From an uncultured Hormoscilla sp. (GTDB lineage: Bacteria > Cyanobacteriota > Cyanobacteriia > Cyanobacteriales > Desertifilaceae), in NCBI GenBank assembly GCA_963921275.4, contig OZ001293.3, forward strand, positions 5,088,001 to 5,152,000: a stretch of 64,000 nucleotides of DNA, given 5' to 3'. Positions 1,110 through 59,625 of this stretch are shown one piece after another. Below the pieces are notes generated by a model, which was not told the origin of the DNA, searched no databases, and saw only the letters and a list, made by a program, of their open reading frames with translations. A program made the translations under genes and the position numbers. Position 1 is the first letter of the stretch; each line of letters opens with the position of its first letter.

Positions 1110-3513
1110 ATTAAACTAAGCCAGAGGGTCACCCCTCCGACTCGTCTCCAAAACCGGACTTGATACTTTCGCATCATCCGGCTCCTCAGTAACGCCACCC
1201 TTGTCATGGGTACGGCTGTGACTACCATCGCTGGCAGTCTTTATATCGTGGCAATGTTTGTGTAGTAACTGTAGGTTGTCGTACTGGTTTTTACCCCCTA
1301 ATGAGAGGGGCTTGATATGGTCAACTTCCCACTTGTCACCACCCATAAACGTTAATCCGCATTGTTGGCACTTTCCCTTTTGTCTCTTGAATAGCGTTGC
1401 TACCCTCTTATTTAGCTCGGGGCTTTTGCCTAATCTCGTACTCCAATATGTAAGGTTCCCGTCATATGGGCTTGCTGTACCTTTCACTTTTATGTGCCTG
1501 ATTATCTCAGTTTCGGAGTGTCTGTACAGCGTTATTTCTTCCTCTCCTATTTGGCACCGGAATCGCCATTTACCGTCCTCACTCAGGGACCAGTACTTAC
1601 GAGCTATCCAATGACTGGATTTATTGGGATGTCTCCTTTTTGCCCACTGCCAGAGAATGGTCCATAGGTAGCGGTCCATGTAGCTGTATGTTTCTTTACT
1701 TACCACTGTCCTATAATAGTTTGACCATCCCCGTATTATCGTGTTTAGCTTACTTATTAAGGCTGCTTGTGGTGCTGCTTTATGGCTGGCCACCATTTCT
1801 GATAGCCGTTCTTTATGCTTCCCTATGGACTTATTACTGGGTTTGATTAGGGTTTTGAATCCTAGGGGTGTTCCGTTGGTTGACTTGCCGGTTCTGTATT
1901 TACCTATCTCATATTGCCTTACTTTGAAACCCAGGAAGTCAAACCCCGGGCTTTCTCCTTTTAGCGTATGAGCTATTTTTGTCTTCTCGGCTTTCAATTC
2001 TAGCCCTATTCCCTTTAGCCATTCTGCCACCACTATCTGCGCTCTGTCTATCATTCCCCTATCTTCATGCATTACCACAAAGTCATCAGCATACCTGACT
2101 ACTGTCAGCTTTTGCTTTTCTTTTTGTGTCCTGGCGAGTTCTTTTACTGCCTCCTCTAGTCCATGTAGGGCTATGTTGGCTAGTAGTGGTGATATGACTC
2201 CCCCTTAGGGTGTTCCCGCTTCGGTTGCATGCCATTCTCCTTTGTCTATCACCCCGGCTTTTAACCATGCCCGTATCTGCTTACGGATTGGTGACGTAGT
2301 ATTTAATTTTTCGACTAGCGCTTTGTGGTCTATCCTGTCGAAACATTTCGCAATATCTGCATCTAATACCCATTTGGGTTTCTGTTTAATGCTGCTGAAT
2401 ATTGCTTCGATCGCGTCGTGGCATCCCCGACCCGGTCTGAATCCGTATGAGTTCCCCTCCATATATGCTTCCCATTCGGGTTCAAGCGCAATCTTGAGGA
2501 GCCCTTGATTCGCGCGGTCGTGCATCGTGGGTATTCCTAAAGGACGTTTTTCTTCTCTCCCTGGCTTAGGAATCCATACACGACGTGTAGGCTTAGCCTT
2601 GTTTGAGATTTCAATCTGACCTACCAGTTCTCGACGTTGCTTTGGGGTTAGTGATTTCACACCATCCACACCGGCTGTCTTCTTTCCCTGGTTATCTTGT
2701 GTAACCCGTCGTACCGCTAGACATTTGGCAGCCCGGGAGCTTACCAGTAACCTTTGGAGCTTGCGAACTTTTTGCTTATTGCCTTCTTGTGCCGCTCTGT
2801 AAATTCGTTTTTGCAACTTAAAGACTACCCGTTCCAGCCGAGGCCAGGGGATATCCTTCCATTCATTCATCGATTTCGACATCGTGCTCATGACGTATGT
2901 ATTGCTACTTACAACTTTACAATTGACGTTACCGTGACGGCGTCAGCCTATCCCATCCATTACAGACGGGCATTTGCTTCTCCACTCAATCTTTCCCAGT
3001 TGCGACCTGCCAAATGAAAGCAGATTTTTTTCGCCTGCGGTGGCTACTCCATCTATCGACCGGTGATGGAGAGTCTACAACCGGTTTACTTCGTTCCTAC
3101 AGATGATTGGTTGTAACTTTAGATGGGTTCTATACGCCGGGTTTATTGTCAGTGCTTACTGGTCGGGATAACATCCGCCAGTGACTTATATCCTTTCCCT
3201 TTTGGGCCAGTGTGTCAGCCTTATTACACTGGTTTAATGTAACGACGCTGCAAACCTTTGCTTTATGCTCATCATAGCTACTTGCACGCTGCGCGAAAAA
3301 TCGGCGATAACCGGTTTAGGCTCCCAGTTAGTACGCCTTTCATCCCCGCTTTACGGATTGATGCCATCTCTACCGTAGGGGAAGTGCTGTCACGAGAGCA
3401 CCTGAAAGGGGTGGACTTTCACCACCATCATCTGTAAGTTATCAGGGCAAATGAAACCCTGTTAGCAGTCCCCCACCAGTTATTACTGGCGGTTTATGCT
3501 AAACGAATCGCAC
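1110..3513 (-). mobile_element. Group II intron (IIB-type) with RT/maturase/HNH ORF
   Basis: 5' GTGCGATTCG at 3513; domain V GAGCCGGATGATGCGAAAGTATCAAGTCCGGTTT; domain VI hairpin ending ...TTAGTTTAAT at 1110; encloses the IEP. Confidence 0.92.
1116..2891 (-). pseudogene. ltrA: Group II intron-encoded RT/maturase/HNH endonuclease with one in-frame stop
   Basis: ORFs 2205..2891 and 1116..2078 are in the same frame. TAA at 2205-2207 replaces the Q of GTPQGG. YADD, RT0-7 motifs and a C-terminal HNH (CQQCG...VDHI...HKHCH) are present. Confidence 0.92.
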
Positions 3514-3870
3514 GCGATCGGCAAACTCCCAGCGACCGTATCGACTCAGGCGTGAGGCAACCGTTTTCCAGTCCGGCGCTTCCGCCTCATCGCATAATCC
3601 CTGAATCACCTGCCAAATTAGATTGTAATCATATTTGGGCAGCAGCAGATAATGCCTGCCCAAAACATATCCAGTTGACGACATCTTGTTTTCTAACCAG
3701 CGAGGACTGCATACCATAAAGTCAAAGGACTCACAACCTTGTTGTCCCTTTGGTCCCACCATTGCCTGCACCAACAACCCAAAGTATTCAGCATCTAGGG
3801 GCGTAAACAAGGGCAAGTCAACAGCATCTGGACTGTGTAGACGACGTAACTCTGCTTGGATAATTTTCAT
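3499..3870 (-). CDS. Imm8-like immunity protein, intron inserted at its 3' end
   Basis: GPKGQQGCESFDFMVCSPRWL...GRHYL...LSRYGRWEF resembles the Imm8 family. Unspliced end is DRVRFV*; spliced end is DRNTH* (stop 1098-1100). Confidence 0.75.
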   Translation of the reverse strand: MKIIQAELRRLHSPDAVDLPLFTPLDAEYFGLLVQAMVGPKGQQGCESFDFMVCSPRWLENKMSSTGYVLGRHYLLLPKYDYNLIWQVIQGLCDEAEAPDWKTVASRLSRYGRWEFADRVRFV

Positions 3871-3977
3871 TGCTAGTGGTCCTCTAATATCGGTCGAGAA
3901 ACAGGGTTTCTCTCGTCATATCATTGATATCTTGTTAATAGCGGCACCAGAAACCCTGTTTCTCGCTTCTACTTTAC

Positions 3978-4657
3978 CTATGGAAAAAAGTAATCCTTGA
4001 AGATGTAGACTATCGCCCCACAAAATGGCCTATATTGCCCTGCTGATCCGGTTGATCGTACCCAACAGCCAGTTTTTGGACTTCCTCATTTGTCAAGTCT
4101 TCGATGCCTCCCAAATTTGCAAAACCATTTCTACCTACCAATATACTATAAATCGCTTTACGGCGACTTATTCTTAGCTTATTAATATCAAGTCCCAGAC
4201 GTTCGATCGTTTCCTTAGCAGCAGCTTGCTTGTCCGGATCGTCCGTTGGCTGAATTTCTCCAGAACCCGTGTACTTAAAAAAATCCGCACAGTTAGCTTC
4301 TATTGGCGAAACCATCAGATTCTCATCATACCATTCTCCTTTCTTATGCCCACAATGCACTGGTTTCGGGGGTGGTGTTTCACTTTCCCCTTGACAGGAA
4401 GCTAGCATATTCCTATATTCCAGTGCTAGATAGGGATGGGTACTGCGAGGTTTGAGATGTTCTATATGACAAGTTTCTCTTGTAATTCGCATCCCACAGT
4501 AACAACAGATGAAACCTTGCTCTTGTAACAAGGCGTTATAAACATCTGTTTTCTCCCGTCCGCTGAGAAGATCGTAGCTAGGTGTCCAGTCTTCGTTAGC
4601 GAGTTCTTTCCATGTAGTCAAGCTTTATGGTTCTTCACCTTTCTTGATATATTTCAT
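3978..4657 (-). pseudogene. PtuB-like / TIGR02646-type HNH endonuclease, inactivated
   Basis: ATG 4657 overlaps the ATPase stop (ATGA). MKYIKKGEEP* gives a stop at 4625-4627. EQGFICCYCG...HIEHLKP...HCGHKK motifs present. 1-nt frameshift near 4035; the alternative frame reads YRPFCGAIVYIFKDYFFP*. Confidence 0.8.
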
Positions 4658-7805: not shown

Positions 7806-8011
7806 ATTCTACCTCGATAATAACTTAACTACTGTTTGAGTTACATCCCATCGTTTACTTGGATGTAATATCGCTGGTTATTCTCCAGAATTTACGCAAA
7901 TCTGCTAGACCATACTGGTGGTAGCCTTTGACAGGGACTTTACATAAACCTGTCGTAAGTCCTGTTCTCTATATTATATGTTATAGCGACATGTCCATAA
8001 ATTTTCTATAT
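7801..8011 (-). promoter_or_regulatory. Leader copy 2 (about 210 nt) upstream of the helicase fragment
   Basis: Near-identical to the copy starting at 9137. Inverted repeats TTACATCC..GGATGTAA and ACAGGGACTT..AAGTCCTGT; TATAAT on the minus strand near 7973. Confidence 0.6.
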
Positions 8012-8719
8012 ATCCTGCCCCAGTTCTCTGATTTTTCCGGAACGGTGGTCCGGCGATCGCCCTAGCACCACTGTTAACTCCATAACTCTTATTCTATCAT
8101 ATCCTGCCCCAGTTCTCTGATTTTTCCAGAACGGTGGACTGGCGATCGCCCTAGCACTACTGTTAACTCCATAACTCTCATTCTATCATATCCTGCCCCA
8201 GTTCTCTGATTTTTCCAGAACGGTGGACTGGCGATCGCCCTAGCACCACTGTTAACTCCATGACTCTCATTCTATCATATCCTGCCCCAGTTCTCTGATT
8301 TTTCCAGAACGGTGGACTGGCGATCGCCCTAGCACCACTGTTAACTCCATAACTCTCATTCTATCATATCCTGCCCCAGTTCTCTGATTTTTCCAGAACG
8401 GTGGACTGGCGATCGCCCTAGCACTACTGTTAACTCCATAACTCTCATTCTATCATATCCTGCCCCAGTTCTCTGATTTTTCCAGAACGGTGGACTGGCG
8501 ATCGCCCTAGCACTACTGTTAACTCCATAACTCTCATTCTATCATATCCTGCCCCAGTTCTCTGATTTTTCCAGAACGGTGGACTGGCGATCGCCCTAGC
8601 ACTACTGTTAACTCCATAACTCTCATTCTATCATATCCTGCCCCAGTTCTCTGATTTTTCCAGAACGGTGGACTGGCGATCGCCTGGCACCACTGTTGAC
8701 TTCATGACTCCCATTCTAC
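8012..8719. repeat. Tandem array, 8 x 89 nt
   Basis: Unit starts at 8012, 8101, 8190, 8279, 8368, 8457, 8546 and 8635. Units are nearly identical and each contains GGCGATCGCC. No unique spacers. Confidence 0.95.
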
Positions 8720-9141: not shown

Positions 9142-9388
9142 ATTCTACCTCGATAATAACTAACTACTGTCTGAGTTACATCCCATCCTTTACTTGGATG
9201 TAATATCGCTGGCTATTCTCCAGAACTTACGCAAATCTGCTAGACCATACCGGTGATAGCCTTTGACAGGGACTATAAGCCTGTCGTAAGTCCTGTTCTC
9301 CATATTATATGTTATAGCGACATGCCCATAAATTTTCTATATATCCCGCCCCAGTTTTCCAACTGCTGGCGATCTCGCCCTGGCACCC
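9137..9388 (-). promoter_or_regulatory. Leader copy 1 upstream of the NERD gene, ending in a single partial homologue of the 89-nt unit
   Basis: Matches 7801-8011, then continues ATCCCGCCCCAGTTTTCCAACTGCTGGCGATCTCGCCCTGGCACC. Confidence 0.6.
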
Positions 9389-9563
9389 CAAATAAGCTTC
9401 ATATTGGAGTCCGCAGCCCGCGCAGGCGGGCTTGGTTATTGTAGACCCACCCTTGAGGATGGGGGTGACGAGCGATCGCCCCTGACAGAAGCCAATTACA
9501 ATAGTAATAGACCGAGACAGTCAAAGCAACCAGACCCAGTAACCAAGACAGAAGGATATACTA

Positions 9564-10184: not shown

Positions 10185-11269
10185 ATGGATCAGCCTATAA
10201 CCGACCTTGCCGAAGTCCTGAAGAACCAACCCCAACTGGATTTCCAGTTGCCATCGCCAGAAGATGAAGAGATTTCCGACCTGGAGTTTCAGCAGCAGTT
10301 GGAGTCCGCTTGGCAAGTGTGCGATCGCTTTGACTTGCAAACGGACATCTGGCGGGGGCGGATCCTGCGGACCATCCGGGACCGAGAGAAAAAAAGCGGC
10401 GAAGGACGGGGGAAAGGATTTCTCAACTGGCTCAAGCAGCGGGATATTACTAAAAGCCAAGCTTATGCCTTGATTCAATTGGCCAATAGTGCCGATACCC
10501 TCTTGAGTGAAGGAAATCTGGATCCAGAGGCCATCAACAACTTCAGCAAACGCGCTTTTGTCGAAACGGCCAAATCGGATCCGGAAGTGCAACAACTGGT
10601 CAGCGATGCCGCCCAAAGAGGCGATCGCATTACCCGCCGAGAGGTCCGGCAACTAGCTGACGAATGGACAGCCATGTCCTCAGACTTACTGCCCGCAGAA
10701 GTTAAAGAACAGGCAACTACCGGTTCATTGCCGACCCGTCACCTAGCACCCCTGGTCAAAGAATTAGAGAAACTGCCAGAGTCTCACTTGCATGCCATAA
10801 AATCAGAAGTGGCCGAGCATCCAGATGTAGATACTGTCAAGCAGATGACCTCAGAATCTCGCAACTTAGCCAAGTATCTCGACGCCGCTGCCCAAGTACA
10901 AGCATTAAATGATGGGCCCGTAGACATGGAAATGGCCTTAGAAGAAGCCCTGCGCCTGGGTTGTCTGAATACTGCTTCAGACCTGGTTAAGCAAGCCACC
11001 CAACTGGAGCAGACTATAGTCAAACTATACACCACCTGGAAACGTTTGGGAAATCTGGCTGATAGAATATATGTAGAGACAGGCGCTTCCACCCCCATCT
11101 GCGATCGCTCCTGGTCAGCTTGGGTATACTGACGGGAGAAGTGATGCAAGTACCCTTGTCCGATTTTTCCGGAACGGTAGGGGGCGATCGGTCCGCGGAC
11201 GGCCCGAAAAATCGCACCGTCCGCCTGCAAATCCTCTCCGATTTTTCCGGAACGGTGGACCGCCTGTAG
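10185..11269 (+). CDS. Conserved cyanobacterial hypothetical protein (frameshift in a C-run near 11094)
   Basis: 315-aa ORF; the alternative frame continues HLRSLLVSLGILTGEVMQVPL...VRLQILS...* to 11269. Confidence 0.65.
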
Positions 11270-11664
11270 GCGATCGGGGACTGGTGACCACTCACTCGTC
11301 GATGTCTCCTGGGTAGTGCGAGTACGATGTCCCCGGGGTAGTGTAGTTAGCGCCCCCCGGAGACATTGAGCGACCATGAGACATCGAAACAAAGAACAGA
11401 TGAGACTTATCTGGCCAACTGTAGTGATATCATACTCTAGTTGTGGGCAGGGCGGTTGTAATCGGAGTCAGGCGATCGGGTATCATATAAATAGAAAGGA
11501 TTTTCCGAACCGAGGATACCAATCCCATGGGGATAAGTTAAATTACAGTAAATCAATTAATCCCACTCAGGGGACCCTGTCTCGTGTCTCGTGGGATTAG
11601 CGCTCGCACGAAACACGGTTGACATAATATCGATGTTTATCATAATCCAGGAGAGATTATACCT

Positions 11665-12360
11665 ATGCAGCAGCTAGCAGTCAGCACGGAACTAGACTTC
11701 CAGAGCGAAATATACAAAGACGCCTACAGCCGGATCAACGCGATCGTGATCGAAGGGGAAGAGGAGGCGAAGGAAAATTACATCAACCTGGCTAAACTGC
11801 TGCCAGACTGCTCCGATGAGCTAAAGAAGCTCTCCAAGATGGAAGGTCGCCACAAGAAAGGTTTTACAGCCTGTGGCAATAATCTGGGAGTGACGCCAGA
11901 CATGGTATTCGCTAAAGAATATTTTAGCCAGTTGCACCAGAACTTCCAAGACGCCCTGGCAGCAGGGAACGTAGTAACCTGCCTTTTGATTCAAGCCCTG
12001 ATTATAGAATGCTTCGCGATCGCTGCCTACAATATCTACATCCCCGTGGCCGACCCCTTTGCTCGTAAAATCACAGAAGGCGTAGTCAAGGACGAGTATA
12101 CTCACCTTAACTTCGGGGAAGAATGGCTGAAAGCCCACTTTGCTGAAGCCAAAGCCGAACTGCAAGCAGCAAATCGCCAAAATCTTCCCCTGGTCTGGAA
12201 AATGCTAAACCAAGTCACAGAGGACGCCCGCAAGCTGGGAATGGAAAAAGAAGCCCTGATAGAGGACTTCATGATCGCTTACGGAGAAGCCTTGGCCAAT
12301 ATAGGGTTTAACACCGGTGAGATAATGCGGATGTCAGCCTACGGTTTGGCAGCAGCCTAG
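11665..12360 (+). CDS. ado: Aldehyde-deformylating oxygenase
   Basis: [20 protein letters not shown] and DEYTH di-iron motifs; adjacent to aar. Confidence 0.97.
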
Positions 12361-12485
12361 AAGCAGGGGAAAAAACAGCCGCACGGCTGCGCCACGCTGC
12401 GCGCTCGGCACAGGCCGAGCGGTGATAATGAAACAGATAGTTCGCGATCAACGCAATTACGCTTTAGAAAAGAAGCCAGCAATAC

Positions 12486-13514
12486 ATGTTTGGTCTTATC
12501 GGTCACCTTACAAGTTTGGAACATGCCCAAGAAGTCGCCAGAGACTTGGGCTACCCGGAATATGCCGACCAAGGGCTAGATTTCTGGTGCTCAGCACCGC
12601 CCCTTATAGTAGACAATATTAAAGTCACTAGCATCACGGGTCAAATCATCGAAGGTCGGTACGTGGAATCATGCTTTCTGCCAGAGATGCTAGCTTATCG
12701 CCGGATAAAGGCAGCAATGAGAAAAATCCTCAACGCGATGGCTCACACCCAAAAACAGGGCATCAAGATTACGGCTCTGGGGGGATTTTCCTCGATCGTA
12801 TTTGAAGAGTTTAACCTGCACAAGCACAGGCAAGTCCGGAATATACAGTTGGAGTTCGATCGCTTCACGACGGGAAACACCCACACGGCATACGTTATTT
12901 GCCGTCAGGTTGAACTGGCATCAGCCCAGCTAGGAAGAGAACTGTCTCAGGCAACGGTAGCGGTTTGTGGTGCCACTGGGGACATTGGTAGTGCAGTCTG
13001 TCGGTGGCTAAATACTAAGACAGATGTGGCTTCCTTACTGATGATTGCCCGCAACCAAGAACGACTGCAAGCTTTACAGTCAGACTTGGGACGAGGCAAA
13101 ATTATGGGATTAGAGGAGGCTCTACCCCAGGCTGATATTATAGTGTGGGTGGCCAGTATGCGCAAGGGCGTGGAAATTGACCCCAAGCAATTGAAGCAAC
13201 CATGCCTGCTGATAGATGGGGGCTATCCGAAAAACATGGGCAGGAAAATATCTCATCCAGGAGTACATGTGCTCAAGGGTGGCATAGTGGAGCATTCCTT
13301 GGATATAGATTGGAAGATTATGAATATCGTCAGGATGGCAGTGCCAGGACGTCAGCTGTTTGCCTGTTTTGCCGAGTCGATGCTGCTGGAGTTTGAGAAA
13401 TTGTACACCAACTTCTCTTGGGGACGCAATCAGATTACAGTAGAAAAGATGGAGCAGATTGGTAAGCTGTCAGTTAAGCATGGATTTAAACCGCTCCTAG
13501 TTGAGGAATGTTAG
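12486..13514 (+). CDS. aar: Acyl-ACP reductase
   Basis: [38 protein letters not shown]. Confidence 0.97.
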
Positions 13515-13613
13515 AGTCAATTTGGGGCTGAAGTCGAATCGCCCTGTCGGGAGACATCGAGCGACCAGGAGATATCAAACCCGTCCTACGAATATATTAT
13601 CAAAATTGCTGAC

Positions 13614-14594
13614 GTGGCAAATACAGAGCGCAAACCGTTACTCCTAGATTTTGAAAAGCCCCTGGTGGAGTTGGAGGCCAGAATTGACCAAATTAGGTCT
13701 CTGGCAGAGGAAAATGATGTCGATGTCTCCGATCAAATCCGCCAGTTGGAAGCCAGGGCCGTGCAGCTACGCACGGAAATATTTAGCAGTCTGTCACCGG
13801 CTCAGCGGCTGCAATTGGCCCGTCATCCCCGCCGTCCGAGTACCCTGGATTATATTCAGGCAATCAGTGATGAATGGATAGAATTGCATGGCGATCGGGG
13901 GGGATATGACGATCGGGCCTTGGTGGGTGGGGTCGGGCGGATGAAGGGACGGCCAGTGGTGATGTTGGGTCATCAAAAAGGTCGGGATACCAAAGATAAT
14001 GTGGCCCGGAACTTTGGCATGGCCTCCCCAGGGGGATACCGGAAGGCCATGCGATTGATGGAACATGCAAACCGCTTTGGCATGCCGATTTTGACCTTTA
14101 TTGATACTCCTGGTGCCTGGGCGGGTGTACAGGCGGAAGAGTTGGGCCAGGGAGAGGCGATCGCCTATAATCTGCGAGAAATGTTCCGTCTGGAGGTGCC
14201 GATCGTATGTACGGTGATTGGTGAAGGTGGCTCCGGTGGTGCTTTGGGGATTGGCGTGGGCGATCGGCTATTGATGTTTGAACATGCGGTGTATACGGTG
14301 GCCAGCCCGGAAGCCTGTGCGGCCATCCTCTGGAAAGACGCTGCCAAATCTGGCCAAGCGGCGGAAGCCCTGAAAATCACCGCCAGAGATCTAAAACAGC
14401 TGGGTATCCTGGACCAAATCGTGGTAGAACCCCTAGGGGGCGCTCATTCAGACCCCTTGAAAGCCAGTGGGATTCTCAAACAGGCCATATGGGAAAATTT
14501 AGAGGAACTATCAGCTATGACTGGCGAAAAACGGCGATCGCAGCGCTATCAGAAGTTTCGCAGCATCGGTGTATTTCTGGAAGCATCTGCCTAG
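13614..14594 (+). CDS. accA: Acetyl-CoA carboxylase carboxyltransferase alpha
   Basis: [31 protein letters not shown]. Confidence 0.97.
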
Positions 14595-15060
14595 AGATCT
14601 AATTTCGTCGAGCGCGCCGATCGCTGCGCGAAAAATCGAAAAAGAATGGCAGGCGCCCCCAGCGTAGCGCCATCGGACGAGTGGTATATACTAAAATTAG
14701 TACACAATTGTTTACATTACTCTCATCTACAGCAGTTATTGGGCTGCTGGCTGTCGGAGTCTGTCGATGGCCTTGGCTGCTTGCTGGTATTAAGTTAGCA
14801 GAAGTGGCAGCTGTATGGGCAGACAAGATTGGGAGTAATTTTTATTATACCCCATATATCTAGCTAATGTCAAGCCCGGAGAGATATGAGCGATCGCCCT
14901 CTCTTTGCTGTCTTGTTTTTTATGGTCTAGTCGCTTTACGAACTTCCCGAATTGTAGAGCAGATAGCGCTGGTGCCCAATGAAAGGCGGCATGGGTGCTG
15001 TCGATAAGAGTGATTGGACAAGAATGCTGCGTAGATAATTGAGTTTTGAGTTTTGAGCTT

Positions 15061-15762
15061 ATGACTATAGCTTCCTTTAACGGTTCCCAACGCCCAGACA
15101 TGACTAACAATCAAGATGCCAAAAAAGTCCTGACTCGTCCCGATCGCAATACTTCAAATGGCTTGCAACCCAGGCAGCCCGATGAAGAAATCGACGACGA
15201 GCAGATGATGGCAGCAGTAAAGACAATGCTGCTGGGGGTAGGAGAAGACCCAAACCGGGAAGGATTGTTGAAAACGCCCAAACGGGTAGCAGAAGCAATG
15301 CGATTTCTGACCAATGGCTACAATCAGTCCCTGGAAGAAATCGTCAACGGAGCCATCTTTGATGAAGGTCACAACGAGATGGTGTTAGTGCGGGATGTCA
15401 ACTTGTTTAGTCTCTGCGAACACCATATGTTACCCTTCATGGGCAGAGCCCACGTCGCATACATTCCCACACAGAAAGTTGTAGGATTGAGTAAGCTAGC
15501 CCGCATTGTCGAAATGTATGCCCGACGCTTGCAAGTGCAAGAACGACTGACGCGGCAGATAGCAGAAGCAATTCAGACCATTTTAGAACCTCAAGGGGTT
15601 GCCGTAGTGGTAGAGGCTACCCATATGTGTATGGTAATGCGGGGAGTGCAGAAACCAGGTTCTTGGACTGTCACCAGTGCGATGTTAGGAGTGTTTCAAG
15701 AAGAGCAGAAAACCAAGGAAGAGTTCCTGAATTTGATTCGCCACCAACCAGCATTCTTTTAA
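15061..15762 (+). CDS. folE: GTP cyclohydrolase I
   Basis: [42 protein letters not shown]. Confidence 0.97.
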
Positions 15763-16034
15763 GATCGAAATTATGCTTCCATTGAGTTTCCCTCGTTCCC
15801 TGGCCATTCTACGTGACGCACTTTCCTCTCGTTCCCAGGCAGAGCCTGGGAACGGGTTCTAGAGGCTCTGCCTCGAAGGACGTGGATGGTTTCTTAATTC
15901 AAGCGGATCAAGCTCCCCCATCGCCCCTTCCCTTAACTATACTACTTCTGTCGCGGATTGTGATAAGATAAACCTTGGCATGGTCTTGGTTTACGACCCA
16001 TTCTCAAGCAAATCATCATTCTCTATTCCTAGTT

Positions 16035-16262
16035 ATGGCTTTTTTGCGTCAAGTATTGGCCCCATTTTTAATCTTATTGGTTTTTTTGGTCGCACTGTTG
16101 GCTGTCAGCGCCCGCATCTTTTTACCTAATGATATGGCGGCACCAGCCCCGATATCCGAGGTTTCTCCTTCCCAAACTGATTCGCTGTCTCCTGGGAGCT
16201 ACAGATGCTGCGCGGGCGAGGACGTCCGCGCTACTACCCAGGAGACAGCGACCGTTAGTTAA
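16035..16262 (+). CDS. Small cyanobacterial membrane protein
   Basis: MAFLRQVLAPFLILLVFLVALLAVSARIFLPNDMAAPAP; its stop overlaps the next ATG. Confidence 0.6.
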   Translation: MAFLRQVLAPFLILLVFLVALLAVSARIFLPNDMAAPAPISEVSPSQTDSLSPGSYRCCAGEDVRATTQETATVS

Positions 16263-23737: not shown

Positions 23738-25222
23738 ATGCCCACTCAAACCCTGCCCAATATACCAGAAATTATTGACGGATTGCCCAATATCTGCGGT
23801 TGGGAAGCAGAAATAAATTCCGTCGTGCAAGGGTCAAAACCGGTCTTTTTACCCAGCACAAATATCCGCTTAGAACAGGTAACCTCCGCCTTTGCGATCG
23901 CCCTCCACATGCACCAACCCACCATCCCGGCAGGCGCAAATGGCGAACTAATTAGCAATCTGCAATACATGTTTGAACATCCCCAGGAAGGGGACAATCA
24001 CAATGCGGGTCCATTTGCCAATTGTTACAGCCGCATGGGTGATATTATACCGGAACTGGTAGCACGAGGTTGCAATCCCCGCGTCATGCTAGATTATTCG
24101 GGAAATCTGTTGTGGGGCTTGCGGCAAATGGGACGGGGAGATATCATAGAAAAGCTTCAGGGCATTACATGCGATCAGGCTTATCAACCCCATGTAGAAT
24201 GGTTGGGGACAATGTGGAGTCATGCAGTGGTGCCATCCACCCCCATACCGGATATCAAACTGCACATCCAAGCATGGCAACAGCAATTTGCCAGCATATT
24301 TGGGTTAGAAGCATTAGGGCGAGTCAAGGGGTTTTCGCCGCCAGAGATGGCATTACCAAACCACCCGGACACCCTGTTTGAATTTATTAAAGCCCTGAAG
24401 GCATGTGGCTATCGCTGGCTATTAGTGCAAGAACATACGGTGGAGACCCTGGAGGGCCAACCCATACCCGAAAAATACCTGCCCAACCGTCTGATCGCCC
24501 GGAATGGCAAGGGAGAAACCATCAGCATCACGGCCTTAATCAAAACCCAGGGTTTCGATACGAAACTGGTAGGTCAGATGCAGCCCTATTATGAAGCCAA
24601 AACCAGGGTAAAACAGCAGCTAGGGGATATAGAAGTCCCCTCATTAGTCACGCAAATAGGGGATGGCGAGAATGGGGGGGTGATGATGAATGAATTTCCC
24701 TCCGCCTTCCAGCAAGCGTGGCAAGAAATGGCCCAGAATGTAGTGGGAGTCAACGGCACGGAATATCTAGAACTAATAGCAGCAGCCGGTTGCCATCCCG
24801 ATCATTATCCCTCTTGTCAGGCAGTAGGTCAACAGGAAATATGGTCGCGCGTGGACCTAGAGAACTGCACCCCCGCAGCAGTAGAACAGGCGATCGCCTG
24901 CATCAAAGAAGACAATCCCAATTATCATATAGAGGGAGCATCTTGGACAAATAACATCAGTTGGGTAAAGGGGTACGAGAACGTGTTAGGGCCGATGAAT
25001 CAACTCAGCGCCAAGTTTCACGAAAAGCTGGACCCATTGGGCAGAGTCAGGGAAAATATTACTCAGTCTTCCGATTTTTCCGGAACGGTGTATCGTCAAG
25101 CACTGCTTTACAACCTGTTACTTCAGACTAGCTGTTTTCGTTACTGGGGACAAGGAACCTGGACCGACTACGCCCGGGAGATTTACCAAAGGGGCGAGTC
25201 TTACCTCAGAAATGCATTCTAA
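23738..25222 (+). CDS. Glycoside hydrolase family 57-like protein
   Basis: ALHMHQP, GFSPPEM, IGDGENGG, TSCFRYWGQG. Confidence 0.85.
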   Translation: MPTQTLPNIPEIIDGLPNICGWEAEINSVVQGSKPVFLPSTNIRLEQVTSAFAIALHMHQPTIPAGANGELISNLQYMFEHPQEGDNHNAGPFANCYSRMGDIIPELVARGCNPRVMLDYSGNLLWGLRQMGRGDIIEKLQGITCDQAYQPHVEWLGTMWSHAVVPSTPIPDIKLHIQAWQQQFASIFGLEALGRVKGFSPPEMALPNHPDTLFEFIKALKACGYRWLLVQEHTVETLEGQPIPEKYLPNRLIARNGKGETISITALIKTQGFDTKLVGQMQPYYEAKTRVKQQLGDIEVPSLVTQIGDGENGGVMMNEFPSAFQQAWQEMAQNVVGVNGTEYLELIAAAGCHPDHYPSCQAVGQQEIWSRVDLENCTPAAVEQAIACIKEDNPNYHIEGASWTNNISWVKGYENVLGPMNQLSAKFHEKLDPLGRVRENITQSSDFSGTVYRQALLYNLLLQTSCFRYWGQGTWTDYAREIYQRGESYLRNAF

Positions 25223-25280
25223 CAGATAATTCTCATCTTTTGTGTGATCTGCTGTCGGAGCAATTAGCAATTAGCAAATT

Positions 25281-26081
25281 ATGAATTACCATGCTAGAGA
25301 GAACTTAATACAAGCGATCGCCGCTGCCGGAATGGCCCTGTTGTGCGGAGGTGCGATCGCCTTTTTGCAAATCCCGCAACTCAAGCAACTTGAAGCGGAC
25401 CCAAACCTAGCAACACCAGAAAAACTGCAGAGGGAAGTTGCAGCAGAAAAAGCTAAACTAAAATTACTCCAGCAGATGCCCGGATTTGGTTTTGATAACT
25501 TAATAGCAAACTGGACAATGGTCCTGTTTTTAATCTACTTTGGAGATGAACCCGCCCGCGCCCAAACAGACTACAGTCTGAGTCCAGAATATTTTGAAGT
25601 GATAGTCGATCGCGACCCCCGCTTTCTGGATGCTTATTTGTTCCTATCTTCCAGCGTATCGCTTTATGCAGCCATGCCAGAACGATCGATCGCTATGCTT
25701 GACAAGGTATTAAGGTTACTAGATCCCCAAGTACCTCCCAAATCTTATTACATTTGGCGTTATAAAGCTATTGACGAGTTATTATTTTTGGGAGATGGTA
25801 AAGCAGCGAAAAAGTCATTTGAGATGGCCGCAGACTGGGCTAGCAATTATTCTGACCCAGAAAGCAAAGCTGTAGCAGCAGTTTCTCGTCAAACAGCGGC
25901 ATACTTAGCCGGTAACCCCGATAGTAAAACAGCTCAGATTTCCGCCTGGGTTATGGTATTAAATAATGCGGTAGACGATCGCACTCGCAAAAGGGCGATC
26001 GATCGTATCAGAACCCTAGGCGGAAGGATAGAAACCACTCCTTCGGGGGCTTTACAGATTATTACGCCACGAGAAGATTAA
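25281..26081 (+). CDS. Hypothetical membrane-anchored TPR-like protein
   Basis: N-terminal hydrophobic helix; GFDNLIANW and DPRFLDAY motifs. Confidence 0.6.
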   Translation: MNYHARENLIQAIAAAGMALLCGGAIAFLQIPQLKQLEADPNLATPEKLQREVAAEKAKLKLLQQMPGFGFDNLIANWTMVLFLIYFGDEPARAQTDYSLSPEYFEVIVDRDPRFLDAYLFLSSSVSLYAAMPERSIAMLDKVLRLLDPQVPPKSYYIWRYKAIDELLFLGDGKAAKKSFEMAADWASNYSDPESKAVAAVSRQTAAYLAGNPDSKTAQISAWVMVLNNAVDDRTRKRAIDRIRTLGGRIETTPSGALQIITPRED

Positions 26082-26188
26082 GGCATCGGGTGCATCTCAC
26101 TTTCGCAAAGGTACATTAATAATACATGCAATTTAGCCCGCGCAGGCGAACTTTGTTTGTGTAACCGGACCCTTTAGGGTTCGGGCGA

Positions 26189-29100
26189 CTAAGATGCCAA
26201 AAAACTGATATTGGGTAGATCGTTGAGTTCGCAGCAGGGGAGGTTTGTCGCCTTGACCCGGGCGATCGCCTCTTGATTTTCGTTCTCCAACCCAATGCGA
26301 GAATGGATGCGGGACAACAAAGCTGACCACTGCATTTCGCTCAACTGTCCTATTAGTGTAATTTCTGGTCCATCATCAACATCTAAATCTTCTGACATCA
26401 GCAGACTCATGACTACGCTACATATAGCTGCATCCGCATCTTCATCAGAAATGTTGCTAGTGTCTACCAAGAGAGTCATCTGGCTTTTATCTGGGTGAGT
26501 TATAACCGTCCCGAACACTCCTGCTAATTCCTCACCTAGGGACTCTTCTGGCGCAGACCAATCTGGGAAGATAATTATATTAACATCTTTCAAGTTCAAA
26601 CCTAGGAGAGTTGCATCCATCAAAGCAGAACTCACCTTTGCCGCCATTCTTGACCAAGAAAACTTTTTCGCCTGTTCCAGTCCCGCTGCGATCGACGAGT
26701 TGCGCACACCAGGCTTTTGCACCTCACAAAGCGCATTCACTAGCCCATCGACATCCTCATCATGCACGTATATTGCTGCTTCTCCTGTTACTTCAGGGAT
26801 AGATGCGTTGGGAGAAGTAATCACGGGACATCCACAAGCCATGGCCTCAAGAACAGGTAACCCGAACCCTTCATACTTGGATGGATATACTAATGCGATC
26901 GCGCCCGAATAAGCAGCACTCAGTTCTTCGTCGCTGAGTTGCAGCATATGAACCACAACCCCTGACGTATAACTTCTCAATTCAGATGCTAATAAACCTC
27001 CGCGTCCAGTACCGACTATCTCAAATCCTTGATACGTGCAAAGTTTCGAGAAAGCTTTGAAGAACAAAATCGTATTTTTATAACCCGTTTCCGGTCCGAC
27101 CAGCAGAAAGTATGGTTTGCCAATTCCGTATTTAGTTTTAAAGCCATTAATCTCCTCAGAACTAGCTGGCGTAAACGGACTTTTAACCCCGCAATGGGCG
27201 ACCGTAACAGACGGGATGTCCGGGAAAAACTTGACTAAATCACGGGCCGTATTCTCAGAAATAGTAATATAGCCAGAAGCTTCTTGGATGCTGCGATGTT
27301 TTTCTCTCCACATGGGTTCGTTTATATTCGCACCCAACCGTTCCGGTATCATGTCATAACCCATAAATACCGAGGGCGTAGACAGAGGCGTTGTATAGTA
27401 AGTTGAAATAAATAATTCCGCCCCCTCTTCATCGCATACTTGTTGTAACATTTCACGATCAGCATCCGTTCTGCTGTAGTCATAAGCTAGCACAGTCCGA
27501 TACCATATTCCCGGAATTTTCGGGGCCGTTCCCACTCGGTCGAGAACCACAATATGTTTAGCAAAATCATGCTTACTCCATTCTGACAGCAATGAACTCC
27601 AGACCCGGGCAATGCCAGTTTGATAGAGCTGGAAAAATACACCGTCAATTACAATTGTGGGAGCTTGTCTCTGTTTTTTGAATTTACCCCAATACAACTC
27701 CTCCGGTAGAGCAAACCGCCAAATGTTGCTGTTGGAATCTTTTTGGGCTATTGGCACCACGCCGCATGCAGAAGCAGTGTCTGCCCTCGTTTCGTCCTGC
27801 ACCCAGGAAAAATACTCCCGCAATAAAACTGGAAATTGAGTCTGGTTTTGCAACGCCATCCATTGCGAAACGGCATCTTGATAACCATAATATTTCTCCT
27901 TAAACTTCAACTGGTCTGGGGTGACATAAGCAAAATGCTGGAACACCAAACCCTCTTTCTCCGTTTCTTCATGTCGAAAAGGGTTGACTGCTGCCACGTT
28001 CCGCCCTTGACTATCAGGTTGCGGTTTAACTAATATCGGAGGTTCGTTAGCAGCCCAGGACATCCCCGGTTTATACTTCCAAGTACGCAACCAGTCTTGT
28101 TTGGGATTCTGAGCGTAGCAATTGCGTGTACTGATAACCATATTTTCGCCCACAAAATACCAACACCAGTAGAAAGCAGCAGTTTTGTCAGGATTGTTGA
28201 CGAACATTTTTCTGGCAGTACATATCTGTTCCAACGTCCACAGTTCATCTACATCTACTTGCCACAGCAAACATTCTTCCTGGATATTGGCTAGGGGTGC
28301 ATTCACCATTTCACGTTTTCCCTCCCAGAAAACACCCTCCGGTTTACAGTAGACCGTGATATTTTCCGGATACAGCCGCGCCAGTTCGTCTAGGTATTCT
28401 GACGTGCCGTCATTGCTACGCCCCTTCCGATGGATTTCATCGGTTATCTGTCCTCCACGCTGCAAACACCAGGCTGTATCGTGCTTCAAGTCAGCAACGC
28501 CCTCAATAATGTGCCAATGCCACGTTATAGGGAGTTGCTTGAACTGTTCTATATGGTAGCGGATAAAAGGTTGACCGTTGAGAACAATGGTAAAGAAATG
28601 GATTGGTAATGTATCAAACAGCTTAGTCAGTTTAGTAAACGGCGGCTTAAATGCTATTCCAGTTCCCGTACCATAGCTATCCTCAATAAACAGATAATCT
28701 GTAAACTTGCTCTTATATTCTTTCCACAGCCCACCTAGTTCGGGATGGGCATGGTGGGCAATGTCATCAAACACCAATGCCCCGCCAGGAGCCATATGAC
28801 TAAAGGCGATATCCAAGTCACTTTTTGCCCCAACGTAGGTGTGGTCTCCATCAATATTAATTAAGTCAAACTCTTGGGGATTGTCTGGATTCGCAAAAAA
28901 GGATGGTAGTTTTTCTTGAGAGTTTCCCTGTATCAAGCTGGGTATGTTTTTTATTTCCAGATTACGCAGTTCTGAAATCACAAACTCAGGACCAGGATTA
29001 TGCGTTCCAGCGTACTCTTGGATCCACAAATCAAAGCCATAGGCTTTAGTTTCTGGTGATTCAACCAAAACCTGAGCAAGCGATCGCTTCCGGCGCACCC

Positions 29101-39090: not shown

Positions 39091-40524
39091 ATGGCAAGCC
39101 CGACAGTAGAAAACTTGGTAATCATTGGTTCTGGTCCTGCTGGCTACACGGCGGCGATCTACGCTGGCCGTGCTAACCTCAAACCAGCGGTCTTTGAAGG
39201 CTACCAAATGGGTGGTATTCCTGGCGGTCAACTGATGACCACAACGGAAGTGGAGAATTTTCCTGGCTTCCCCGACGGCATTACTGGCCCGCAACTGATG
39301 GACAGAATGAAGGCTCAAGCAGTGTACTGGGGGGCCCAGCTATATACTGAAGATGTTATAGCTGTTGACTTGATCCAGCCACGTCACCGTGTCGGAAAAA
39401 TCGGAAGTAGTGCGAATAGCCCTCTCCCGAGACATCCAAGTCCCTTTACTGTCCGATCGTCCGATCGGACATTACACACCCACAGCATTATCATCGCCAC
39501 CGGAGCCACAGCAAAGCGGTTAGGACTGCCCTCTGAGGAGAAATTCTGGAATCAGGGCATCTCTGCATGTGCTATATGTGATGGTGCCAGTCCCATATTT
39601 AAGGGAGTAGAGTTGGTGGTCATTGGTGCTGGCGACACAGCAGCAGAAGAAGCAGTCTATCTAACCAAGTATAGCGCCCACGTTCATATACTAGTGCGGC
39701 GGGACCAGATGCGAGCCTCTAAGGCGCTGCAAGACAGAGTCTTGGATAACCCCAAAATCACGGTCCACTGGCATACCGAGGCCGTGGACGTATTCGGTGC
39801 CAATGGTAAGATGCAAGGGGTGAAGGTGAAAAATAATCAGACAGGCGAAATGAGGGAGTTACCTGCTGGCGGTCTGTTCTATGCTATTGGTCACACCCCC
39901 AATACTCAACTTTTCCAAGGTCAACTAGAACTGGATGAGGTGGGTTACATTGTGACTAAGCCCGGTTCGGTAGAAACTAGCGTGGAGGGGGTCTATGCTG
40001 TGGGTGACGTACAAGACCGCGAGTTTCGTCAGGCCGTGACGGCTGCTGGTAGCGGCTGTATGGGGGCAATGTTAGCAGAAAAATGGCTTTCTGCCAATGG
40101 GTTGGCCCAGGAGTACCATCAAGAAGAAAGCAATAAAGCGCTGACTACAAACAATGTTCATAGTGAGGACTTGAGTTCTCAAAAATCTGATATCTTTGAC
40201 ATAGCAGCGACGCGACATCAGGGTGGTTATGCCTTGCGCAAGCTTTTCCATGAGAGCGATCGGCTGATCATGGTAAAATACTCTGCGCCTACCTGCGGCC
40301 CTTGTCACAGTCTCAAACCCATTTTAAGCAAGGTAGTAGACGAGTTCGATAACAAGATCCACTATGTAGAAATTGACATCGAACAAGATCCCGAGATTGC
40401 TGAGAATGCGAGTGTCACCGGTACTCCCACCGTACAGTTCTTCAGGGACAAGGAATTAATCCATCAATATCAAGGCGTCAAGCCAAAGAGTCATTACCGG
40501 GAAACGATCCAAAGCAATTTGTAA
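39091..40524 (+). CDS. NADPH-thioredoxin reductase C (NTR fused to thioredoxin)
   Basis: [16 protein letters not shown] redox motif; C-terminal Trx domain with CGPC. Confidence 0.93.
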
Positions 40525-45751: not shown

Positions 45752-47023
45752 TTAAGTGCCAGTCAGCTGTACTTGCTGCTGTTGTAATATCTGGGCATAA
45801 AGCTTTTCCAGCTGAGAGATATTGCGAGTGAGGGTATAGCGTTCCAGTACGCGGCGTCGGGCTTTTTGCCCCAATAGCATAGTCAACTCCGGGTGGTCGT
45901 GAAACAGAGGCAGAAGAGTTCGCAGCTCAGAAGTAACGCGATTAGTATTTAAGATCACACCAGCGCCCCCCTCCAAGACTTCACCATCAGCACCAGCATC
46001 TGTAGCGATGCAGGCGACACCACAAGCCATTGCTTCCAGCAGAGATAGGGAAAGCCCTTCTACAAGAGAAGGCAAAATAAATACATCTGCACCCCGCAAT
46101 ATTTCTATCCGCCTTTGTTCGTCACCAATGAAACCCAACCAGATAATCCCCTGTTCTGGGCCATAAGACATTTTTAAAGAAGCCGCCAATGGTCCATTCC
46201 CGATAATTAAGAGCTTGCAGTCATCTCCCAAATCCGATTGCTTCCAAGCTTTAAGTAAGGACTCTACATTCTTTTCTGTAGCGATTCTGCCCTGATAGAC
46301 AAACAGACGGGAAGCAGCTATTGAATGCTTCACATCGGCAGGTCCGGGGGAGTATTTCTTTTCATCTACCCCATTGGGAATCACTGCTACCTTCTGGGCT
46401 GGGACACCCAGGCGCACCAAGAGGGTCCGCTGAATCTGAGAAAAGACGATTACACAATCGTAGTTCGCCAGACAGGGGGCATATAGCTGATAAGTCAGGT
46501 GTTGAGTGCCGGAACTCAGATTGCGCATTTTGTGGTCAAAGGGCGGGTGGAACGTCGCCACTAGGGGCAAAGAAAGCTCTTGACAGATTTCCGGTAGCAG
46601 GAAATCCAGAGGAGACAAGGTCAGGGAAGCATGTACTAAATCAGGCTGCAACTGCCAGAGCGCGCGGGCCAACACTTGGCTCGATTTGAGAGTGGGAATA
46701 GTGTAAATCGTGGATTTGTACAAACAGGGAAGAGAAACCTCCACCATCCAGTTTGGCCATCCGTGAACTTCCTTTTGATCGCGGTAGGGACGACCGTTAC
46801 CCTTGTATGAGGCAGTTTTTGGCAGCTGACTGGGCACCGTTCCGGAAAAATCGGCGCGAGCATAAGCATACCTGCTTGAGGTACTCCTACTAAGGGATTC
46901 TGACTGAGAAAAATGAAGAAAGCTCACCTGATATCCCCGATCTAGCAACGCATTGGTTACCTCTCGCGAATAGGTAACATTGCCACAGAAAGGTGATTTT
47001 TTTCCAAGCCAAGCTATATGCAT
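45752..47023 (-). CDS. GT4 glycosyltransferase
   Basis: MHIAWLGKKSPFCGNVTY, EGLSLSLLEAMACG; conserved deoC-recO-MFS-GT cluster. Confidence 0.9.
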   Translation of the reverse strand: MHIAWLGKKSPFCGNVTYSREVTNALLDRGYQVSFLHFSQSESLSRSTSSRYAYARADFSGTVPSQLPKTASYKGNGRPYRDQKEVHGWPNWMVEVSLPCLYKSTIYTIPTLKSSQVLARALWQLQPDLVHASLTLSPLDFLLPEICQELSLPLVATFHPPFDHKMRNLSSGTQHLTYQLYAPCLANYDCVIVFSQIQRTLLVRLGVPAQKVAVIPNGVDEKKYSPGPADVKHSIAASRLFVYQGRIATEKNVESLLKAWKQSDLGDDCKLLIIGNGPLAASLKMSYGPEQGIIWLGFIGDEQRRIEILRGADVFILPSLVEGLSLSLLEAMACGVACIATDAGADGEVLEGGAGVILNTNRVTSELRTLLPLFHDHPELTMLLGQKARRRVLERYTLTRNISQLEKLYAQILQQQQVQLTGT

Positions 47024-48510: not shown

Positions 48511-48521
48511 TATCACAAACG

Positions 48522-53313: not shown

Positions 53314-56279
<2,966 letters not shown>

Positions 56280-56344: not shown

Positions 56345-56526
56345 GCCTTTGGGCTATCCTGTTCAGCGGAACCAGTGCCCAAGTGGAGTAATGGAAGGAA
56401 TTAACAATATTCTTAAGCTGATTAAGCGTCAAGGATACGGATTTACAAACTTTGAGAACTTCCGTTTACGTTTATTAGCTTGCTTCTCTGATAAGAAAAA
56501 CTTATCACCATAAGTACAGGAGACCC
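56345..56526 (+). pseudogene. ISL3-family transposase 3' remnant
   Basis: INNILKLIKRQGYGFTNFENFRLRLL; terminal GGAGACCC. Confidence 0.75.
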
Positions 56527-56724
56527 ATATGGATTGACTGAAAACATTGAAATATCCAAGGTAGGGTCGGTCTATCCGTCAGCGGACCTAACTGATTTTT
56601 TACTCCTGAACCTGTTCCTTTAAGTGTTTGCCTTATCTGTCGCTCTGCTACTTTATACACTAACAAAGATCAAGCCATAATTAAACATAAAACTTCAATT
56701 CGTTTTGGAGATTTAATAAATACA

Positions 56725-58608: not shown

Positions 58609-59625
58609 ACGTGAGTTCGACGGACTGGACAAAAAAAAAAGGCGGAGACTGGGTTTGAACCATTCCACCCCAGTCTGAACCCACCATGAGTCAAATTGTA
58701 TCGCGCCTGGATGTCACCCGCATCTTCTGTGAACTAGACGACTTCTGCCAAATGTTCGATTTTTCCGGAACGGTGCGCCACTGGGAAGAACAACCGCAAC
58801 TGCCCTCCATGCCTGGGGAACGATGCTGTCGTTCGCGCATGAGCCTCTCAGAAATTATGACGATTGCCATCGCTTTTCATGGCTCGGGCTTCCGTACGTT
58901 CAAAGAGTTTTACACCCTGTGTGTTCTCCCCCATTGGCGCGGAGCCTTTCCCAACTTGGTCAGCTATAATCGCTTTGTGGAATTGATGCCGTGGTGTCTA
59001 ATGCTATGAAGTTGTTTTCTTCATACTCGAAAAGGAGAAGTTACAGGCATTTCCTTTGTTGATTCTACACCCATAGAAGTTTGTCACCCTCGTCGTGCTC
59101 ATAACCATAAGGTGTTCAAAGGGCTAGTCCACTGGGGGAAAAGCTCAACTGGCTGGCATTTCGGATTTAAATTGCATTTGATTATCAACGAGCGCGGAGA
59201 GTTACTAGCCTTCAAGCTCACGCCAGCCAACACTGACGACCGTAAACCTGTACCAGAGATGGCTCAAGACTTGTTTGGAAAACTGTTTGGAGACCGGGGA
59301 TATGTCTTGAGAGACCTATTCGAGAAATTATACGAACAAGGTCTCAAATTGCTAAATCGAAGCGAAATATGAAAAATCGCTTGATGAAAACGAGCGATAA
59401 AATCCAGCTCCGAAAGCGGGCCGTCATTGAATCAGTCAACGACCAACTCAAGAACATCTGTCAAATCGAGCATTCTCGCCACCGGAGTGTCTTCAACTTC
59501 TTGGTCAACCTGCTGGCCGGCTTGGTGGCCTACACCGACGCCGATAAAAAACCTCGCCTCGATCTGGAGGTCAAAGGCTTACCAGCACTACCTCCTGCCA
59601 TTTTATAGTTTCGTCGAATTCACGT
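58609..59625 (+). mobile_element. IS982-family copy B (1017 nt), defective
   Basis: Same IRs and same lesions as copy A (TGA 59007-59009, frameshift near 59365); inverted relative to A. Confidence 0.93.

Follow-up and report, generated by a model that had tools for sequence, protein, structure and literature searches.

The window analysed here is a stretch of 64,000 nucleotides (nt) from the genome of an uncultured Hormoscilla sp. (G000:C1:5088001-5152000). The source genome, G000, has an assembly of 7.03 Mb with 47% G+C and was compared with four other Hormoscilla genomes, G001 to G004. The window carries copies of a 15-nt cassette, which consists of a run of five T residues (T5), a C, a stem of three base pairs (bp) with a GNA loop, and a final T. 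Its form A (TTTTTCCGGAACGGT) was found seven times as an exact match in the window, where none was expected, and no match occurred in any of 100 dinucleotide shuffles of the window. The cassette is a dispersed insertion that is precise and target-specific and causes no duplication of its target. In the following, the insertion point is marked ^.

Copies of the cassette in the window

Exact copies of form A were confirmed at all seven positions given in a preliminary description of this DNA, namely 8032, 11164, 11242, 25075 and 58760 on the plus strand and 46836 and 55000 on the minus strand. The copy at 25075..25089(+) lies in an open reading frame (ORF) of 494 amino acids (23738-25222), where the residues DFSGTV stand in place of E. 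G000 and G003 carry the element at this site, whereas G001, G002 and G004 read TCCGA^ATATCG and are shorter by exactly 15 nt; comparison with orthologues bore out the precise 15-nt difference that had been predicted. The ORF has no match in Pfam, NCBIfam or the PDB sequences, and its earlier label as a GH57 protein lacks support. The copy at 46836..46850(-) is located in a GT4 glycosyltransferase gene (45752-47023, minus strand), of which amino acids 58-63 are DFSGTV. It was present in G000, G002, G003 and G004, and the outgroup G001 was 15 nt shorter at this position. The copies at 55000..55014(-) and 58760..58774(+) occur in two copies of the same IS982-like ORF, the second of which spans 58686-59009. 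The name IS982 is weakly supported by a match to NF033520 (E 1.6e-8) below the curated cut-off. Five copies of this IS982-like family were filled, and one paralogue with 76% identity was empty by exactly 15 nt. DFSGTV is encoded in four ORFs, as stated before, but these represent three distinct proteins and not four unrelated ones: the 494-amino-acid ORF, the GT4 enzyme and the two copies of the IS982-like ORF.

Another exact copy, at 11164..11178(+), is situated between ORFs. It was filled in G000, G002 and G004, and the copy in G003 had an internal deletion of 9 nt. At 11242..11256(+) G000 carries the exact consensus behind CTCCGA; at the same site G002, G003 and G004 carry a different 15-mer with 9/15 identical positions, in surrounding DNA that is 93-99% identical. 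An element of a different type, C, with a length of 24 nt occupies 11188..11211(-). It begins TTTTTC, ends CGA and is inserted in GCGA^TCGC, which resembles the HIP1 sequence (GCGATCGC). This C element was found in G000 alone, and G002, G003 and G004 were shorter by exactly 24 nt. The sequence at 11197 that had been taken for a looser 15-nt copy proved to be part of it. A hairpin of -8 kcal/mol (z -2.4) was predicted at 11186-11209(-), offset from the C element by two bases.

The exact copy at 8032 belongs to a tandem array of 8.1 units of 89 nt at 8004..8718(+). Each unit contains an A-type element, and the copies at 8121, 8210, 8299, 8388, 8477, 8566 and 8655 are of a CCAG variant. In a solo homologue of the array unit (about 9335-9400) the 15 nt are missing, as had been noticed earlier, and there is also a 1-nt indel elsewhere. 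When up to three mismatches were allowed, form A gave 19 matches in the window, compared with a mean of 2.03 and a maximum of 7 in the shuffles. These 19 matches include the seven CCAG variants, a copy at 39386(-) and a near-match at 62806(-), which has no CGA flank.

The variant at 39386-39400, which was known from the preliminary description, is present but was found to be nested at CCGA within a 45-nt hairpin element on the minus strand. Together they form a 60-nt in-frame insertion at 39380..39439(-) in the gene of an NTRC-like thioredoxin reductase (39091-40524, plus strand). The insertion has a predicted fold of -10 kcal/mol (z -2.6) and is absent from G002 and G003. It supplies 20 residues of the protein (97-116), and residues 95-116 fall between the stretches that align to chain 7p9d_A. 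This essential-looking enzyme tolerates 20 extra residues.

A second form of the cassette, B (TTTTTCGCGCAGCGT), occurs at 3286..3300(-) in a multicopy repeat. The repeat lies upstream of ORF 2205-2891(-), which encodes a fragment of a group II intron-type reverse transcriptase (RT) with the domains RVT_N and RVT_1. With this locus as query, 51 paralogues were empty by exactly 15 nt and 19, including the query itself, were filled; B is found at the same position in about 19-20 of some 70 copies of the host repeat. A copy of type B', which ends in ...GCGA, is located at 14621..14635(-) in an intergenic hotspot of nested small insertions. The nested combinations at this hotspot differ from species to species, with a C element among them and a larger nested insert in G004. 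The variants at 3286 and 14621 were described correctly as present, but they lie, like the sequence at 11197, on the minus strand, where the plus strand reads ...GCGCGAAAAA; because of the nesting, the site at 14621 does not provide a clean example.

Copy number, target site and hairpin in the genome

In the complete source genome form A has 180 exact copies, or 274 when up to two mismatches are allowed. The corresponding numbers were 80 and 136 for form B and 66 and 102 for the third T5 family, C; the cassette is far more frequent than chance would allow. GATTTTT occurs 2,937 times in the genome and leads into A in 177 cases, into B in 77 and into C in 65. Copies are full length and mostly identical (180/274 for A). 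There are also multicopy variant subfamilies: CCGGCACGGT with 19 copies, a variant in ...GCGA with 19 and one with a GTA loop with 13. The B variant ending in CGA (B') was followed by T in 19/19 cases. It also forms a tandem of six head-to-tail copies (G000 C1:4116584-4116673), one of them with T for C, in a host sequence that begins GCGATCGCTCGA; such a tandem is expected if each B' copy recreates the CGA target. No longer parent element and no half-sites were found in the genome. Among 211 occurrences of CGGAACGGT, 177 have GATTTTTC just before them, and most occurrences of CGATTTTTCC are full elements or point variants. There was also no clear class of end-truncated copies in the genome. 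Many other 15-mers reach 170-355 genome copies and reveal that further dispersed repeats are abundant; these 15-mers appear to be parts of a few longer repeat families. The six small contigs of G000 contain no copy of A, B or C, compared with about 11 expected jointly. Contig C3 of G000 (31,420 bases) has a G+C content of 17.6%, compared with 42-49% in all other contigs, and may be foreign to the cyanobacterium, derived from another organism, an organelle or a phage.

The target site was analysed using only copies with distinct flanks (A, n=229; B, n=112). To the left of A, C was present at position -4 in 88%, C in 78% or T in 13% at -3, G in 91% at -2 and A in 93% at -1. The base after A was G in 47%, A in 41%, T in 10% and C in 1%. 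Both forms lie directly 3' of (C/T)GA on the T-rich strand, which may be either strand of the chromosome. The commonest left flanks were CCGA (160) and CTGA (25) for A, and TCGA (37), GCGA (36) and CCGA (17) for B, so that at -4 form A prefers C and form B prefers T or G. Form A has little relation to HIP1: among its 274 copies the left flank was CCGA in 184 and GCGA in 11, and about 10 copies lie in CGA^TCGC. B and C copies are frequently located within CGA^TCG. The genome has 4,738 HIP1 sites and 13,621 CGATCG sites.

Empty sites were sought within the genome by comparing 315-nt stretches around all 512 copies with the genome by BLAST. For 55 of the 512 query loci at least one paralogue was found whose gap corresponded exactly to positions 1-15 of the element. 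The empty paralogues read ...CGA^R..., with 0 bases duplicated and 0 lost. The flank counts and these clean empty paralogues agree with the earlier claim that the cassette is inserted after CGA and before G or A without target duplication, and the filled and empty alleles that had been looked forward to were obtained both from paralogues and from orthologues in sister species. In one host repeat 269 empty copies were found versus 6 filled ones. The occurrence of many empty and few filled copies in some host repeats favours insertion over deletion. [quoted passage not shown] Stems of at least 4 bp occurred in 6.1% of the reconstructed empty sites, compared with 4.9% of 2,000 control CCGA^R sites.

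Forms A and B are alike at positions 1-6, 9, 11, 14 and 15 and differ at 7, 8, 12 and 13. These four positions make up the two inner stem pairs, and both pairs are swapped compensatorily. Pair 7-13 is CG in A (207 copies) and GC in B (110 copies); pair 8-12 is GC in A (212 copies) and CG in B (110 copies). At position 10 form A has A and form B has C, and an A variant with C at this position (19 copies) matches B. All three pairs are kept in 86% of 341 copies, compared with 0-1% of the distinct variants when the partners were slid by one column. The covariation of the stem reported earlier was confirmed by these numbers. Position 10, the loop centre, varies most in A (24 changes among 229 copies), where each of the four GNA loops is represented. 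In B it is the second most variable (14 in 112) after the last base (21). The T5 run is the most conserved part, with 1-5 changes per position.

According to Hirao and co-workers, extra-stable DNA mini-hairpins reportedly have a GNA triloop closed by a C-G pair. Such unusual stability had been ascribed to the cassette earlier. Of the two forms, B alone has this closing pair and reads C-GCA-G or C-GTA-G; A reads G-GAA-C with the opposite pair, and nearest-neighbour energies omit the stability bonus. The description of an ultra-short, structure-defined mobile element holds as far as the 15-nt insertion is concerned. The calculated hairpin energies are marginal, and the words structure-defined therefore rest on covariation and not on energy.

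To estimate how many copies lie in genes, a crude criterion was applied: the copy had to lie in a stop-to-stop ORF that spans 150 codons or more and stays open through it. By this criterion 141 of the 229 A copies are in long ORFs, 71 in sense and 70 in antisense orientation, which agrees with the earlier observation that copies are often in frame within genes. Over the six phases the intragenic copies are spread much as 3,000 control CCGA^R sites are. Two of the sense phases were mildly depleted, with 7 and 8 copies versus about 15 expected for each (chi-square 14.3, 6 degrees of freedom). DFSGTV is encoded in a sense phase that comprises 56 A copies. As read off the sequence, all six frames of the cassette are free of stop codons, although stops may still arise at the junctions. 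Since its length is a multiple of three and it contains no stop, copies survive in genes as additions of five residues, and the insertion is compatible with open reading frames. Copies also hitch-hike in larger repeats, such as the IS982-like element, the intron-like repeat and the tandem array.

Other families of small insertions, D (22/23 nt), E (24 nt), C (24 nt) and a hairpin family of 44-45 nt, also start right after CCGA. D and E each consist of two hairpins with GCA or GTA loops and are present in about 140-180 copies each at up to two mismatches. E starts with the hairpin of B, followed by a second hairpin. Both D and E begin TCGC, often after CCGA, and the left junction then reads CGATCGC. 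In the 44-45-nt family the loop is conserved (GTAGTGCGA[AGT]TAGCG...), and the stems are variable yet complementary. The insertions of this family are polymorphic between G000 and G002, and one of them is that found in frame in the NTRC-like gene. Nesting is illustrated by the A variant in the 45-nt element and, in the relatives, by C elements and further inserts that lie within copies of A or next to copies of B. As C, D and E share the CGA^ target with A and B, they are probably inserted by the same machinery.

Distribution and mobility among Hormoscilla genomes

Form A was detected in 177 copies in G000, 25 in G001, 140 in G002, 148 in G003 and 127 in G004. For form B the numbers were 97, 21, 28, 51 and 47, respectively. 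Neither form was found in 36 other relatives, nine of the same family and 27 of the same order. In a sample of the phylum comprising 401 genomes, which included G000 and left out the other four Hormoscilla genomes, no genome besides G000 had more than three matches at up to one mismatch. Among the matches listed from a species-representative collection, most came from Hormoscilla sp., and the rest were single, chance-level matches in unrelated metagenome-assembled genomes (MAGs). The A/B family is confined to one genus of sponge-associated cyanobacteria, Hormoscilla, which NCBI places in the Gomontiellales (Gomontiellaceae) and not in the Nostocales. An exception among the MAGs is an 18-mer composed of CGA and form A, which recurs in near-palindromic surroundings in three MAGs of Methanoregula (contigs L097, L117, L128 and L141); this repeat is probably unrelated and matches by coincidence. 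A phage was considered as a vector and rejected. One viral contig contained A and six contained B, five of the latter in one context (four of these five from one metagenome), and these matches are at chance level or represent a single locus.

The relatives are syntenic with G000 and about 90% or more identical to it in aligned DNA. In terms of mean distances, G001 is an outgroup at about 9.5%, and G000 is sister, at 4.6%, to the trio of G002, G003 and G004, which differ by 3.5% among themselves. The orthologue comparison with G002 was based on a part of 1.2 Mb. For 35 copies in G002 a spanning match was available in G000. Nine of these were empty in G000 by exactly positions 1-15, 12 were filled in both genomes (eight of them with the consensus), and at a few further copies the gap in G000 was shifted or slightly longer. 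Of the 25 copies in G001, two were common to G000, three were cleanly empty in G000 and 14 had no spanning match. When all indels of 6 nt or more that separate G000 from G002 were listed without bias (n=531 in 667,632 aligned columns), local peaks appeared at 15 nt (31), 22-24 nt (51) and 45 nt (9). About half of the 31 indels of 15 nt were A, as judged by reading the list, and A was the commonest single inserted sequence. The differences in copies between the Hormoscilla species indicate that insertion went on after speciation, and the element was active recently.

Nine A-type copies common to G000 and G002, eight with the consensus and one variant, had 0 differences in 135 nt, compared with about 4.5% in their flanks according to our own tally of the listed rows. 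As these copies were chosen as near-consensus, this is only a hint that shared copies evolve more slowly. The presence patterns conflict with a single tree; {G000,G003}, {G000,G004}, {G000,G001}, {G000,G002,G003} and {G002,G003,G004} were all observed. The local distance matrices were mosaic across segments, and in one segment of 1.6 kb G002 was nearest to the outgroup G001, which suggests recombination between the Hormoscilla lineages. Given these mosaic matrices, recombination can explain the conflicting patterns, and precise excision is not claimed. Recombination, excision and recurrent insertion fit the patterns alike and cannot be told apart.

Possible mechanisms and comparison with known systems

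The reading that we tentatively prefer, at somewhat less than even probability, is that a strand-transferase with specificity for both site and structure acts after CGA and mobilises the cassette in trans. The cassette would then be a non-autonomous mini insertion element of the kind of the small dispersed repeats (SDRs). The trans-acting enzyme would recognise the T5 leader and the small hairpin and cleave the DNA after CGA. By analogy with the HUH/Y1 enzymes of the IS200/IS605 and REP world, its likeliest substrate would be single-stranded DNA. The only Y1/RAYT-like gene of G000 is located at C1:241639-242256. It is flanked by a GTAG-tagged REP (GTAGCCCGCGCAGGCGGGC...) with a maximum 14-mer count of 113, of which one REP-like copy is present in the window at 9412-9436.

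Several observations count against mobilisation by such a strand-transferase. Of the mobilisers conjectured in the preliminary description, an RT or a HUH/RAYT enzyme, the RAYT is not supported, as its gene is flanked by its own GTAG-REP and not by A or B, and Y1 genes of similar score occur in relatives without A or B. No enzyme linked to the element was found. Known IS200/IS605 elements and REPs need much larger hairpins, in the case of IS200/IS605 one at each end. The calculated folding energies of A and B as DNA, on both strands, ranged from -1.5 to -2.0 kcal/mol, and folds just as good were obtained with 69-102 of 200 shuffles. An enrichment of empty sites at hairpin apices was not clear (19% versus 14.5% in controls). 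No orientation bias was seen along the chromosome in 500-kb bins, where the GC skew is near zero; this test is weak, because the skew is too flat to define replication arms. Finally, both the non-tree-like presence patterns and the replacement at 11242 fit conversion or recombination as well as transposition.

It is less probable, and in our view unlikely, that the cassette is moved by no known transposase family and that a dedicated short-patch DNA writer adds 15 nt at CGA sites. Such a writer might be an enzyme resembling an RT or a primase that works from a fixed template, or a minimal strand-transferase for which T5 and a 3-bp hairpin suffice. A specific scheme of template-directed writing appears similarly doubtful. 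The DNA would be nicked after CGA, and the 3'-OH would be brought into register with a fixed template, a short RNA (or DNA) whose end is ...AAAAAUCG. An RT or a primase-polymerase would then extend it by exactly 15 nt, in a manner resembling telomerase or target-primed reverse transcription, followed by ligation; the templates for A, B and C would be alike in the 3' tail and different elsewhere. This scheme accounts for a target that is defined on the 5' side only, for the presence of CGA^TTTTTC in all T5 families with T5 as the most conserved part, and for a fixed length with 180 of 274 copies identical, as if made from a master template. The lack of a parent element and the RT genes of the genome, such as the group II intron-type RT in the window at 2205-2891, are also in its favour. 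However, no candidate template RNA and no dedicated RT was found, although no systematic search was made. The multicopy variant subfamilies would demand several masters or the copying of copies, the families D and E use the same target without T5, and the covariation of the stem would have no obvious role in a pure template.

Repair of breaks, or short-patch conversion, is slightly less probable still. Here a nuclease would cut at CGA^, half of the HIP1 core CGATCG, and the breaks would be patched from an existing copy, new copies being products of conversion and not of transposition. CGA is indeed the left half of CGATCG, such sites are abundant, and B and C copies often lie in CGA^TCG. The different 15-mer at 11242 in three species, versus the consensus in G000, would also fit, as would the nine unchanged shared copies, a weak point given their near-consensus selection. 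A passage of PMC4390886 suggests that SDR5 insertion could be due to directed cutting of HIP1. Form A mostly avoids HIP1, however, and a one-sided microhomology of 3-4 nt could not by itself fix the right boundary so exactly. That the copies are a non-mobile motif, which arose in place by selection, by mutation bias as in uptake sequences or HIP1, or by local slippage, is very improbable. The element is short, and HIP1 is thought to spread without insertion, according to the text available from PMC5861425, but the exact 15-nt indel brings identical content to unrelated loci, not runs of point changes, and the flanks offer no template for slippage. An artefact of assembly, adapters or sequencing was rejected and has next to no probability. 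Five assemblies, each of another species, contain the cassette, in part at orthologous sites, and the reading frames stay open. In addition, contigs of two public runs, possibly of the source sample, agree with the window at 10500-11211, 11439-16182 and 24556-30000 with 0 differences and 0 gaps. Taken together, the non-mobile and the artefact explanations retain a very small probability.

The cassette is a real and well-documented new case of a rare type of mobile DNA whose mechanism is unsolved. It acts like a mobile DNA of the smallest known kind. With 15 nt it is, to our knowledge, shorter than any repeat with documented precise insertion, REPs and MITEs being larger. Five genomes with hundreds of copies, many of them polymorphic between species, and with a very simple anatomy are well suited to a search for the mobiliser by phylogenetic profiling and to learning how small insertions remodel proteins. 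If the enzyme were new, it could find practical use for short site-specific insertions. If a short-patch writer existed, the cassettes would be the smallest mobile genetic elements known and a natural system for the site-specific insertion of five codons. It would also open a route to the mechanism of the SDRs, an open question since 2008.

Of the known systems, MITEs differ from A and B in their terminal inverted repeats and target-site duplications. The IS200/IS605 elements and their miniature derivatives, a group described in PMC6006769, are similar in that they insert 3' of a short, specific sequence of one strand without duplication and are recognised by hairpins. Unlike the cassette, which has one 9-nt hairpin in 15 nt, they have a sizeable hairpin at each end and either encode a TnpA or depend on one; no IS200-type TnpA was found in G000 beyond the single RAYT-like gene. 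REPs and REPINs with their RAYT Y1 HUH transposases, as far as described in the accessible parts of PMC6006769, PMC3116915 and PMC3733652, are likewise short, high-copy hairpin repeats without target duplication, and like A and B they are presumably handled as single-stranded DNA. In these accounts, however, REPs are 20-40 nt long, carry a GTAG/CGTC tag and are extragenic, whereas A and B are untagged, have a 3-bp stem and, in the case of A, lie in long ORFs in 141/229 copies. The RAYT gene is there normally flanked by its cognate repeats, which is not the case here with A or B. The Rickettsia palindromic elements, as presented in the available part of PMC10969869, resemble the cassette as selfish elements that are in frame in unrelated protein genes and add a peptide, but with about 150 bp they are ten times longer, belong to another phylum and have no sequence relation.

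The closest resemblance is to the SDRs. Elhai et al. 2008 (Genome Res 18:1484) reportedly described SDR1-8, of 21-27 nt, in Nostoc punctiforme and other Nostocaceae. Both groups are very short dispersed repeats with interrupted and uninterrupted loci, occur in genes and in nested arrangement, have a hairpin backed by compensatory changes and have no known mobiliser. They differ in length, A and B having 15 nt compared with 21-27 nt (C and E have 24 nt and D 22-23 nt), and in the host, Hormoscilla (Gomontiellaceae) not being a member of the Nostocaceae. Term searches of the main texts of the Hormoscilla genome papers found no passage on small repeats. SDR5 was found exclusively inside HIP1, between bases 3 and 4, according to the part of PMC4390886 that is available. 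A comparably precise insertion into HIP1 is exhibited here by the 24-nt C element and by part of B, while the target of form A is CCGA^R, mostly without regard to HIP1. The cut also differs, as it follows the fourth base of HIP1, compared with a position between bases 3 and 4 in SDR5; where a variant ends in A, both positions coincide. According to a passage of PMC5861425, SDR-like repeats were not found in any group other than the Nostocaceae, and the SDR-like behaviour in Hormoscilla contradicts this printed statement. Likened to them by description, the 15-nt element is best filed with the SDR elements of the Nostocaceae, as a new and shorter variant.

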